IMG/VR virus record: IMGVR_UViG_2597490227_000004
Origin: a virus
Lineage: Duplodnaviria; Heunggongvirae; Uroviricota; Caudoviricetes
Direction: 5' to 3' (one strand)
DNA length: 7,690 bases
In this document: positions 1,785 to 2,657 of the stretch, in pieces
Numbering within the stretch: position 1 is the stretch's first letter
Layout: every line of letters starts with the position of its first letter
Made by a program: the position numbers and the translations under genes
The notes under the pieces: model-generated
What the model was told of the DNA's origin: nothing
What the model saw: the letters and a program-made list of their open reading frames with translations, nothing else
The model's database searches: none

Positions 1785-2024
1785 CTATTTCCTGCGCATG
1801 TCACGTAACTTCTTAATGTGTTCTGCCGTTTCGATCTCTTCTGCTATCCGATCTGCATCAGCTTTATTCACAGGTTCAAAGTCATGATTAAAGCGGAACA
1901 TGCTGGCGATACATGTTCTGCCTTTTCGGATGTAGTGAACTTTGTTGTGGGTAGAACGCAGGATTTTGCAGGGAGTGCCGTGGTGGTCGACGTACCAGGT
2001 GTTAGGGTCAATCACTCTGAACAT
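1785..2024 (-). CDS. Hypothetical phage protein (79 aa), basic C-terminus
   Basis: Intact ORF co-oriented with the operon, AAGG 8 nt upstream of ATG at 2024. The start overlaps the upstream gene's end by 17 nt. I recognise no family with confidence. Confidence 0.5.
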   Translation of the reverse strand: MFRVIDPNTWYVDHHGTPCKILRSTHNKVHYIRKGRTCIASMFRFNHDFEPVNKADADRIAEEIETAEHIKKLRDMRRK

Positions 2025-2334
2025 TCTTGACCTTGTGTTGTGCGGATTGATATTCAGTGCTGATATTCACCTTTATAGCGAACACCTTTACCGGTTTATC
2101 GCCAAAGTGCGGATGTGTGATTGTCTTCACTTCATATCCGTCATACGGAACATCAATTCTGCGACTGGAATCGTCGCGCTTCGGATATCCCTTTGTGATA
2201 ATCAGGCGGTCATATTCCCGGAACATAATTCGCTTATTCCAGTAGTCATTACACAAGCGATACTCTTCCGTTTTCTCTCCGCGAATCATGGCATCGAAGT
2301 ATTCACTTTTAACAGCAAGTTGCAGGTTAGCCAT
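2008..2334 (-). CDS. ASCH-domain (PUA-like fold) protein, about 108 aa
   Basis: Translation contains IRGEKTEEYR, matching the ASCH hallmark GxKxxExR. ATG at 2332-2334 overlaps the TGA stop of the upstream TraR-like gene (TGATG), indicating translational coupling. Confidence 0.65.
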   Translation of the reverse strand: MANLQLAVKSEYFDAMIRGEKTEEYRLCNDYWNKRIMFREYDRLIITKGYPKRDDSSRRIDVPYDGYEVKTITHPHFGDKPVKVFAIKVNISTEYQSAQHKVKNVQSD

Positions 2335-2555
2335 CACTTAATCCCCCTTTGTTTGCGGATAAGCTCCAGATCTTGCTGGCAACTGGCGCAAGTCCGACAA
2401 CCCTGAACGGCCAGGCGTCTTCGTTCATCTATCGGATCGCCACACTCACAACAATGAGTGGCAGATACAGCCAGGTAGTTCAGGCGGCGCATTTTTATTG
2501 CTGTGTTGCGCTGTAATTCTTCTATTTCTGATGCTGAATCAATGATGTCTGCCAT
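2334..2555 (-). CDS. DksA/TraR-family C4-type zinc-finger protein (73 aa)
   Basis: Four-cysteine motif CxxC-x14-CxxC (CCECGDPIDERRRLAVQGCRTC) in a 73-aa protein, the size and arrangement typical of TraR-like proteins in lambdoid early regions. Confidence 0.75.
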   Translation of the reverse strand: MADIIDSASEIEELQRNTAIKMRRLNYLAVSATHCCECGDPIDERRRLAVQGCRTCASCQQDLELIRKQRGIK

Positions 2556-2561
2556 CTTTCA

Positions 2562-2657
2562 TTAATCCCTGAACTGTTGGTTAATACGCTTGAGGGTGAA
2601 TGCGAACAATAAAAAAGGAGCCTGTAGCTCCCTGATAATTTTGCTTTTCATGTTCAT
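2562..2657 (-). CDS. Candidate micro-ORF (31 aa; MNMKSKIIRELQAPFLLFAFTLKRINQQFRD)
   Basis: AAGGA RBS upstream of tandem ATGs at 2657 and 2651; the stop lies 6 nt before the TraR-like ATG. Too short for the ORF track; weak evidence. Confidence 0.25.
   Translation of the reverse strand: MNMKSKIIRELQAPFLLFAFTLKRINQQFRD

Follow-up and report, generated by a model that had tools for sequence, protein, structure and literature searches.

The exo-xis region of phage lambda is non-essential, expressed early, and variable downstream of a conserved block (PMC8614690). Lambda Orf73 binds RNA polymerase in the secondary channel, lowers the activity of rRNA and ribosomal-protein promoters without ppGpp, increases phage yield, and slows host growth (PMC9239242). 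For ASCH proteins, a preprint reported that 19 of 19 tested members, including GKER-type ones and with no phage protein among them, removed N4-acetylcytidine (ac4C) from tRNA, and that the Lys and Glu of the motif were essential for this removal; the claim for the GKER type comes from this one preprint, which itself cites an earlier conflicting report (bioRxiv 10.64898/2026.02.27.708502). RgdR (ECs1581), encoded on the phage-inducible chromosomal island or cryptic prophage CP-933C, binds DNA non-specifically and alters type III secretion and motility, and its RGD tripeptide is important for activity (PMC3378721).

We examined positions 1785-2657 of a 7,690-nt stretch of viral DNA (IMG/VR record IMGVR_UViG_2597490227_000004, hereafter the window), which the original prediction had singled out as one translationally coupled accessory cassette. 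By alignment, this interval lies in the exo-xis region and forms the distal part of the early leftward (pL) operon of a lambdoid prophage of the phage 21 kind. The prophage is essentially the same as Escherichia phage ev207 (NC_049949), itself lambdoid and phage-21-like, which was 99.97% identical to window positions 1490-4800; over those positions phage 21 (OL657228) was 97% identical. The operon reads int, xis, ..., orf61, orf63, orf60a, exo, bet, gam, kil, cIII, ral, N, and pL transcription with N antitermination would cover all the genes discussed here. The order exo, orf60a, orf63, orf61, micro-ORF, orf73 is that of lambda, and from 2344 rightwards the two are about 95% identical in DNA; on the downstream side of orf73, lambda has ea22, ea8.5, and orf55 where the window phage has an ASCH gene and a DUF4222 gene. 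In ev207 and phage 21, the DUF4222, ASCH, and DksA-like or zinc-finger proteins were already annotated, and in phage 21 the micro-ORF was annotated as a gene too. Phage 21 differs in an ASCH read-through two codons longer (110 aa) and in an intact orf61 homolog, and the differences of both phages from the window are not substantial. Furthermore, at least 80% of 1785-2657 was carried by 593 of 5,426 complete E. coli genomes, annotated with the same family names. The flagged stretch is ordinary mosaic phage DNA that had been annotated before. We consider it highly probable that it comprises three independently inherited modules of a mosaic phage-21-like prophage and no single functional system.

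Four minus-strand ORFs were present as described in the original prediction: the DUF4222 gene at 1785-2024 (79 aa), the ASCH gene at 2008-2334 (108 aa from ATG, or 109 aa from a GTG at 2337), orf73 at 2334-2555 (73 aa), and the micro-ORF at 2562-2657 (31 aa, or 29 aa from a second ATG at 2651). In the TGATG at 2332-2336, the A of the orf73 stop codon TGA is the first base of the ASCH ATG, the ASCH and DUF4222 genes overlap by 17 nt (2008-2024), and a 6-nt gap (2556-2561) separates the micro-ORF from orf73. These junctions have the geometry of translational coupling, and each downstream gene is preceded by its own Shine-Dalgarno-like sequence. The DUF4222, ASCH, and orf73 ORFs are, on sequence grounds, real genes, because their products have family matches and the sites that vary among relatives fall mainly at third codon positions (positions 1/2/3: 18/9/28 for ASCH, 6/5/16 for DUF4222, and 11/4/28 for orf73). 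Tight packing, however, is no mark of this stretch, since stop/start overlaps occur throughout the operon (exo/bet, orf60a/exo, and orf63/orf60a); they are the ordinary packing of the pL operon.

The homology breakpoints were then found to fall at gene boundaries. In blastn, window 2344-3299 aligned with lambda 30402-31362 at 95.5% identity, and the lambda homology ended at 2344, 8 nt from the orf73 stop codon. As delimited by blastn and alignments, the minus-strand module junction (2332-2344) holds this end together with the TGATG and the Shine-Dalgarno-like AAGGGGGA, which lies within the 3′ end of orf73; the junction AAGTGATGGCT was unchanged in 30 of 32 ASCH-bearing loci. The ASCH homology to ev017, Min27, and ST104 ran exactly from start codon to stop codon, and that of the DUF4222 gene to 2E9, 4A7, and SfI began at its start codon. 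The interval would resolve into a first module (2334-2657) that is the end of the exo-orf73 block conserved with lambda, with the micro-ORF and its hairpin and U-run followed by orf73; a second (2008-2334) that is a single ASCH gene set precisely between the stop codon of orf73 and the gene that follows; and a third (1785-2024), DUF4222, which is one of the several genes that can fill the slot beside xis. The original prediction had called this the part of the window least explained by lambda homology, which holds for the non-lambda ASCH and DUF4222 genes but not for orf73 and the micro-ORF, which are about 95% lambda DNA.

The description of the xis-to-exo interval as a known variable region agreed with the literature on the exo-xis region (PMC8614690), and the alternation suggested for related phages was indeed seen. 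From 80 loci picked for at least 93% Orf73 identity, which are not independent samples, the 58 with a complete orf73-to-xis interval were counted, and the contents of the interval varied among them, as did its length (529 to 2,898 nt). A script found both genes in 15 of these loci, ASCH only in 11, DUF4222 only in 11, and neither in 21; three SfI-type loci were scored as ASCH-only, yet carry a DUF4222 gene overlapping xis, and after this correction about 18 of the 58 had both genes and about 8 ASCH only. The alternatives to these two genes in the interval were ea22, DUF550, DUF551, ea8.5, orf55, and a Min27 gene. ASCH occurred without DUF4222 in Stx2 phages, the P22-like ST104, and virulent Jerseyvirus, and DUF4222 without ASCH in SfI, 2E9, and 4A7. 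As judged by these comparisons, the ASCH and DUF4222 genes assort independently among related phages, which, together with the mosaic breakpoints at gene boundaries, contradicts the claim of a single cassette.

The TraR-like gene is, by sequence, an ortholog of lambda Orf73, because 66 of the 73 residues are identical (90%). Its product matched PF01258 (TraR/DksA) with an E of 6.7e-9 and 36 bits against a cut-off of 24.9, scored 55.1 bits against a cut-off of 59.7 with NCBIfam TIGR02419, and matched TraR and YbiI among PDB chains. It carries an N-terminal acidic DxxDxA motif (D3-I-I-D6-S-A8), which was defined for the TraR subfamily (PMC9239242), and also the C4 zinc finger (C35xxC38 ... C56xxC59) and the ExxR[K/L] motif (E44-R-R-R47-L48), both given as TraR hallmarks (PMC8614690). 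The C-terminal residues differ from those of lambda Orf73 because the mosaic joint falls there. By orthology, the window protein would act on RNA polymerase as the lambda protein does. The original prediction regarded the stretch as a plausible place for an uncharacterised function; this fits the phage roles of ASCH and DUF4222 but not orf73, whose lambda ortholog has been characterised (PMC9239242).

The micro-ORF is probably lambda "orf2313". Its 31-aa peptide is 100% identical in lambda, at 30715-30620, and lambda has no other minus-strand ORF of 31 aa with an ATG start between xis and exo; in addition, a review reports a 31-aa peptide of the exo-xis region as translated, from lambda ribosome profiling (PMC8614690, citing Liu et al. 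2013). Nevertheless, its status as a gene is less certain than that of the other three. Profile searches had been proposed for the 79-aa and 31-aa products, and they placed the former in DUF4222 (PF13973), whereas the latter matched no family in Pfam, PHROG, or NCBIfam. Its variable sites were spread 3/5/5 over codon positions 1/2/3, with no third-position bias. Inside it, about 60 nt upstream of orf73, a consensus scan located a terminator-like hairpin with a U-run on the minus strand (2605-2633), the stem of which (2633-2615) has 8 pairs including 4 G-C and a 3-nt loop and is followed by TTTTATTGTT. The RNA was predicted to fold at -11 kcal/mol (z -2.4), and this was the only clean hairpin with a T-run on the minus strand from 3300 to 1650. 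Lambda tL3 was tried as an identity for this hairpin and rejected: the hairpin maps to lambda 30673-30691, and tL3, which is presumably on the lambda segment in pKD46 (31088-33241), is taken to lie near lambda 31.26 kb.

It is possible, though we lean somewhat the other way, that the micro-ORF is no independent protein gene and that the hairpin and U-run are an N-suppressible terminator or RNA-stability element gating orf73 and the distal genes, with any translation of the micro-ORF incidental or regulatory. The core stem and T-run were invariant in 33 distinct alleles, one of them with an unrelated upstream gene, while the flanking codons changed mostly non-synonymously (5 synonymous versus 9 non-synonymous changes), and the first start codon alternates between ATG and GTG, being GTG in most relatives. 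The lack of a protein family and of third-position bias points the same way, and gating would make sense because Orf73 slows host growth (PMC9239242). On the other hand, the ORF was intact in every allele seen, the annotators of phage 21 called it a gene, the peptide is reported as translated in lambda in the review just cited, and terminator-like sites in the region were not above chance (2 found versus 2.0 expected).

The ASCH gene product matched phrog_625 (E 2.5e-51). With the Pfam ASCH model (PF04266, PUA-like superfamily) it reached 14.3 bits, below the gathering threshold of 21.2, over residues 7-29 only, and 24 of 46 homologs gave likewise sub-threshold matches (best E 0.021). Across all 46 homologs the motif G19-E-K21-T-E-E24-Y-R26 (GxKxxExR) was invariant, and structure prediction of the product gave a beta-barrel of the ASCH type, in which helix alpha-1 lies between strands beta-1 and beta-2. 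Because hhalign of the profile against E. coli YqfB gave no signal (probability 0.1), the product would be assigned to ASCH by predicted fold and motif only. A PDB chain search with the single sequence returned no match, and a profile of the 46 homologs matched PDB chains at chance level only. Compared with described members, the octapeptide motif stands at the same positions (19-26) as in YqfB and EOLA1, Glu24 puts the protein in the GKER subgroup with TthASCH and EOLA1, and the predicted barrel with its helix between strands 1 and 2 resembles all three. The window protein differs from them, however, in having no detectable sequence similarity outside the motif, in being shorter (a 94-aa core), and in being encoded in a phage early operon.

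Closer relatives were found among phages. By sequence, the window ASCH gene is a homolog of 933W L0064 and ST104 ORF6 and a single-gene mobile module: these two and Min27 ORF04 are copies of the same module, 91-95% identical in DNA and situated close to xis in the early-left region, but with other neighbours (DUF551/EaA, ORF7, and a terminator-like sequence after the gene) and with the TAA stop codon kept, giving 94 aa. A comparison of stop codons placed a read-through tail of codons 95-108 plus stop at 2008-2052 on the minus strand, the TAA of ev017, Min27, and ST104, whose proteins have 94 aa, being TAT in the window. Among 31 full-length ASCH alleles, 12 encoded 94 aa and 19 encoded 108 or 110 aa, the usual homolog length is 93-96 aa, and residues 97-108 had a pLDDT below 50. 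Judged from these alleles, the 17-nt overlap with DUF4222 is a lineage-specific product of the lost stop codon (TAA to TAT) and not a design feature.

Since an ASCH-like predicted fold is combined with an intact Gly-x-Lys-x-x-Glu-x-Arg motif, the phage ASCH protein is probably an ac4C- or RNA-acting enzyme, and in lytic growth it would target N4-acetylcytidine, for instance that of tRNA, or act on RNA in another way. We find it less likely, at perhaps the level of a serious minority reading, that it is no deacetylase but an RNA-binding protein, a ZmASCH-like single-strand-specific ribonuclease, or a reader or decoy of modified bases, serving the phage in the takeover or protection of RNA or DNA. 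ZmASCH and the YTH and EVE domains are among its structural neighbours, some database records name its homologs "RNA-binding protein", and ZmASCH and EOLA1 have a positively charged cleft and ribonuclease activity (PMC6803910; PMC5615036). The Lys and Glu reported as essential for ac4C removal in GKER-type ASCH proteins are nevertheless invariant in the window's ASCH family, and neither a nuclease partner nor a fused domain accompanies it.

The DUF4222 product matched PF13973 at residues 4-53 (E 3.6e-19; 68.5 bits against a gathering threshold of 27), and its predicted fold is a small SH3/Tudor-like beta-barrel with a long helix at the C-terminal end. No match was found in a PDB chain search with the single sequence. 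An exhaustive profile search collected 49 clusters from 1.84 billion representatives and revealed no informative domain fusion, since all clusters were of 43-171 aa. The product appears distantly related to RgdR, a link resting on the shared Pfam model, which RgdR matches at 82 bits, and on a pairwise E of 7e-6 (24% identity over 68 residues); hhalign of the DUF4222 profile against RgdR was weak (probability 12%). Both proteins are small, basic, and encoded on mobile elements, but RgdR, of 99 aa, is extended at the N-terminus and contains an RGD motif that is absent from the window protein, and its gene lies upstream of a primase gene and not next to xis. The first residues paired by BLASTP are window residue 11 and RgdR residue 24, and by extrapolation of that offset RgdR residues 20-22 (the RGD) correspond to window P7-N8-T9. 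The similarity is too low for a confident transfer of function. By analogy with this distant relative, DUF4222 would be a small basic protein that binds nucleic acid and modulates gene expression.

Homologs of DUF4222 with 33-100% identity lie directly upstream of xis or int in several phages, namely those of phage 21 type, SfI, Min27-type, phi24B, P27, and a Klebsiella phage. In lambda the same slot, that of the last small pL-operon gene before xis, holds Orf55 (lambdap35), which alternates with DUF4222 among otherwise similar phages; the two are unrelated in sequence, and Orf55 was modelled as a T7 Gp2-like alpha/beta protein (PMC8614690), in contrast to the predicted beta-barrel and helix of DUF4222. 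Because DUF4222 adjoins xis or int even where the xis/int types are unrelated, it could be supposed to work with that module, for example as an excision accessory or timing factor, and to be no general regulator. We regard this as distinctly unlikely. DUF4222 is not co-inherited with xis, since near-identical copies stand beside xis genes of different types, DUF4222 is absent from many phages whose xis is the same, RgdR adjoins a primase gene in its own element, and lambdoid gene order is generally conserved whatever the function.

Finally, we regard as very improbable the reading in which the ORFs make up a single accessory cassette, coupled in translation and serving one function in host interaction (defence or anti-defence, for instance). 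In its favour, the ORFs overlap or abut, ASCH and DUF4222 have no assigned phage roles, and the arrangement is the commonest single pattern among the sampled close Orf73 relatives and the same in the 593 complete E. coli genomes, a frequency that could reflect selection for the orf73-ASCH-DUF4222 combination and not clonal spread. Against this reading, the genes are separate in many phages, each with other neighbours, the breakpoints coincide with gene borders, the 17-nt overlap derives from a lost stop codon, the orf73 block is common to lambda, which lacks ASCH and DUF4222, ASCH also occurs in virulent phages without the other genes, and the PADLOC defence models matched none of the seven products at E up to 1. 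This last result accords with the original statement that no known defence system is present in the sequence. The original prediction was right, overall, about small, tightly packed accessory genes in a variable region and wrong about the single cassette.

As it stands, the significance of the interval is very little: the phage is deposited and annotated, the exo-xis region is well known, and the orf73 mechanism is published. Its interest lies in its modules. The family of stand-alone ASCH proteins is found very widely among enterobacterial phages, temperate as well as virulent, and recent ASCH work makes ac4C removal a cheap and specific assay for the phage member. DUF4222 keeps its xis-adjacent position across divergent phages, and its characterised relative RgdR is tied to EHEC virulence regulation. 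Furthermore, natural phage pairs differ by one such gene (e.g., ev207 versus Lambda_2E9), so that these questions are easily testable. In E. coli, ac4C is found at the wobble base of elongator tRNA-Met. It is a speculative idea, to which we give little credence, that ASCH as an early ac4C eraser on host tRNA, the xis slot as a site of host-takeover factors, and Orf73 make up a reprogramming toolkit. If this were true, ASCH would strip ac4C from host tRNA and so retune decoding or blunt a tRNA-directed host response in lytic growth, small interchangeable factors aimed at DNA or RNA polymerase would occupy the slot near xis (DUF4222, Orf55, and others), and the distal pL operon with Orf73 would reprogram host gene expression in both transcription and translation.

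Some further searches concerned the surroundings of these genes. The orf61 homolog was considered as a ZapA protein and rejected, even an intact allele scoring a sub-threshold 17 bits against a cut-off of 23.8. NCBIfam gave no match for the orf61 homolog, ASCH, DUF4222, or micro-ORF products, and the sole Rfam match in the whole window was the lambda cIII thermoregulator, outside 1785-2657. In the DUF4222-xis spacer, a scan revealed an AT-rich inverted repeat with 16-bp arms (1739-1777, listed without a strand). Upstream of this hairpin, no promoter was found on the + strand by scan and none convincing on either strand by eye. On the + strand the repeat is terminator-like, with a predicted RNA fold of -18 kcal/mol (z -4.35) versus -8.8 on the minus strand, and it was conserved among phages with a phage-21-type xis.

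All four minus-strand ORFs claimed by the original prediction for 1785-2657 were present in the ORF list and the minus-strand sequence: a DUF4222 gene (1785-2024, 79 aa), an ASCH gene (2008-2334, 108 aa from its ATG and one codon longer from the GTG at 2337), the TraR-like gene orf73 (2334-2555, 73 aa), and a micro-ORF (2562-2657, 31 aa). The claimed junctions were seen too: TGATG lies at 2332-2336, the overlap of 17 nt covers 2008-2024, and 6 nt (2556-2561) separate the micro-ORF from orf73; the observation itself is confirmed. Of the two products proposed for profile searches, the 79-aa one matched DUF4222 in Pfam (PF13973, E 3.6e-19), but the 31-aa one stayed outside the three family-matched products. 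The other two matches were the 73-aa product to the TraR/DksA zinc finger (PF01258, E 6.7e-9; Pfam) and the ASCH gene product to phrog_625 (E 2.5e-51), the latter being sub-threshold against Pfam ASCH. Among related alleles, third codon positions held most variable sites in ASCH, DUF4222, and orf73, and no such concentration was found in the micro-ORF.

Over 1490-4800, the window matched Escherichia phage ev207 at 99.97% identity and phage 21 at 97%, both lambdoid phages of the genus Jouyvirus. Masked N-runs at 482-555 and 1299-1489 interrupted int and xis; they are 74 and 191 nt long, against 29 and 64 nt in ev207, so positions left of 1490 are offset from those of the real phage. The genes followed the order of a lambda early-left operon: int, xis, DUF4222, ASCH, orf73, micro-ORF, orf61 homolog, orf63 (DUF1382), orf60a (DUF1317), exo, bet, gam, kil, cIII, DUF2528, ral, sieB (+ strand), and N. 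At the cIII start, the cIII thermoregulator RNA element of lambda (Rfam RF01804) was matched at full length (5356-5414, minus strand, 88.5 bits).

The interval had been interpreted as one translationally coupled accessory cassette. Its variable, accessory character and the functionally uncharacterised status of two of its genes held up, but the sequence comparisons argue that it is not one unit, since the genes assort separately and the joints lie at gene boundaries. In junction alignments, ASCH homology to phages ev017, Min27, and ST104 was bounded by the start and stop codons, and DUF4222 homology to Lambda_2E9, 4A7, and SfI began at the DUF4222 start codon; in SfI a different xis was joined right after the DUF4222 stop codon. 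Lambda_2E9, 4A7, and SfI carried orf73 directly followed by DUF4222 without ASCH, whereas Min27 and ST104 carried ASCH with other neighbors and without DUF4222. Of 80 IMG/VR loci encoding a close relative of Orf73, 58 had a complete orf73-to-xis interval, and a script scored both genes in 15, ASCH only in 11, DUF4222 only in 11, and neither in 21. It is worth noting that three SfI-type loci were scored ASCH-only although DUF4222, overlapping xis, was present, giving corrected counts of about 18 with both genes and about 8 with ASCH only. The proposed comparison across relatives thus did find alternating genes at this locus: ea22, DUF550, DUF551, ea8.5, orf55, and a Min27 gene.

The tight packing is real but not distinctive, because genes along the operon usually overlap their neighbors (exo with bet, orf60a with exo, and orf63 with orf60a) and the 17-nt ASCH/DUF4222 overlap arose from a lost stop codon. 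The ancestral TAA, kept in ev017, Min27, and ST104 (94 aa), is TAT in the window, which adds 14 low-confidence residues to ASCH and extends it into the DUF4222 gene. The coupling features are generic or accidental. As had been anticipated, no known defense system was identified, a PADLOC search returning no defense signature. Part of 1785-2657 was carried by 3,622 of 5,426 complete E. coli genomes, and at least 80% of it by 593, with ASCH, DUF4222, and TraR/DksA as gene annotations. The finding is ordinary mosaic phage DNA that is annotated already.

Nor does the label 'least explained by lambda homology' fit the TraR-like gene and the micro-ORF: half of the interval is conserved in lambda and has been explained before. 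Lambda 30402-31362 aligned with window 2344-3299 at 95.5% identity (blastn), the homology ending 8 nt from the orf73 stop codon, and 66 of 73 residues were identical between lambda Orf73 and the 73-aa product, which kept the DxxDxA motif, C4 zinc finger, and ExxRL motif. The exo-xis region has been described as a conserved block of orf60a, orf63, orf61, orf73, and usually ea22, followed by a variable gene set (PMC8614690); judged by this homology, the TraR-like gene and the micro-ORF are members of lambda's conserved block. Lambda Orf73 binds RNA polymerase, inhibits rRNA and ribosomal-protein promoters without ppGpp, slows host growth, and increases phage yield roughly four-fold (PMC9239242). 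The peptide predicted from the micro-ORF has an exact counterpart in lambda. A review credits a 31-aa 'orf2313' to lambda ribosome profiling (PMC8614690), and the micro-ORF very probably corresponds to it, because no other minus-strand ORF between lambda xis and exo is 31 aa long and begins with ATG. Inside the micro-ORF, a hairpin followed by a U-run (2633-2605, minus strand) was invariant in 33 alleles, and the surrounding codons changed mostly nonsynonymously; selection may act on the peptide itself, on its translation, or on the fold of the RNA. Another hairpin, a weak one followed by TCTTTCTG, was seen in the 3205 region (minus strand) within orf63/orf60a, for which a strict terminator scan gave no call. 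It maps to about lambda 31268, presumably the site of lambda's tL3 terminator.

Next to the micro-ORF, the orf61 homolog (2655-2931, minus strand) has its frame broken by a 4-nt deletion (GGAT) between 2782 and 2783. In relatives the ORF is intact at 93 aa and ends in a TGA that overlaps the start of the micro-ORF. Almost all of them lack the deletion; its occurrence in ev207 and three IMG/VR loci indicated a real allele. The frame is also disrupted in the lambda reference, there by a different lesion, a +1 shift from an additional A in an A-run; the 61-aa 'orf61' of lambda thus appears to be a shortened version of the relatives' longer gene. 'ZapA', the PGAP name for these relatives, was sub-threshold in Pfam. 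The orf61 frame is overlapped in its 5′ part by a strongly hydrophobic 27-aa ORF, MTTTECIFLAAGFIFCVLMLADMGLVQ (2862-2945, minus strand), whose conservation extends to lambda and phage 21; this ORF may encode a small membrane peptide or be a mere alternative frame.

The remaining interest lies in what the ASCH and DUF4222 families may do in phages. ASCH homologs, typically 93-96 aa, were abundant in Enterobacteriaceae prophages. In an AlphaFold model of ASCH (pLDDT 83), helix alpha-1 sits between the first two strands of a beta-barrel, and the tail (residues 97-108) is disordered. The protein's GxKxxExR signature (G19, K21, E24, and R26) was invariant in 46 homologs; EOLA1 has the same motif at equal numbering, whereas YqfB has GxKxxTxR, also at equal numbering. 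Sequence profiles did not place the ASCH product: besides its sub-threshold Pfam score, PDB searches gave no matches, and hhalign against YqfB gave no signal. According to a 2026 preprint (bioRxiv 10.64898/2026.02.27.708502), tRNA was stripped of ac4C by every one of 19 ASCH proteins assayed, Glu-type members among them, and the motif Lys and Glu are essential; we therefore favor an ac4C- or RNA-directed activity for the window protein. ASCH homologs also occurred in virulent phages (Jerseyvirus) and in Bas78, whose record states no lifestyle; their presence in virulent phages points to a role in lytic growth.

The DUF4222 model (pLDDT 88) comprised a small SH3/Tudor-like barrel (residues 10-52) and a long helix (54-78). 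The only characterized DUF4222 protein found in the literature was RgdR (ECs1581), from a phage-inducible chromosomal island, a nonspecific DNA binder that activated both LEE1 and type III secretion while repressing motility (PMC3378721, PMC10877973, and PMC6092414). RgdR also matched PF13973 and shared 24% identity (E 7e-6) with the window protein, but its RGD motif is not conserved there. In the E. coli Sakai RefSeq record (L011, 4305-4604), ECs_1581 is still labeled 'hypothetical protein' despite the published regulatory phenotype and the clear DUF4222 match. With 49 clusters among 1.84 billion representatives, this subfamily is a small one, and no domain fusions were found in these clusters. 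Homologs with 33-100% identity had xis or int directly downstream in phage 21-type phages, SfI (L010, 2452-2730), Min27-type phages, phi24B (vb_24B_1c; L096, 2501-2752), P27 (L03; L097, 1878-2243), and Klebsiella phage ST13-OXA48phi12.5 (L095, 2001-2240). The divergent homologs of phi24B, P27, ST13-OXA48phi12.5, and SfI (33-97%) were always last before xis/int, whatever the xis/int type, and a TraR/DksA gene lay directly upstream in 2E9, 4A7, SfI, and the Klebsiella phage.

The DUF4222-xis spacer contains an AT-rich inverted repeat with 16-bp arms (1739-1777), whose predicted RNA fold was -18 kcal/mol (z -4.35) on the + strand versus -8.8 on the minus strand. Since a T-run follows it on the + strand, the repeat resembles a terminator of transcription running antisense to the pL operon; no + strand promoter or gene was found upstream of it. 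The repeat was conserved in phages with a phage-21-type xis.
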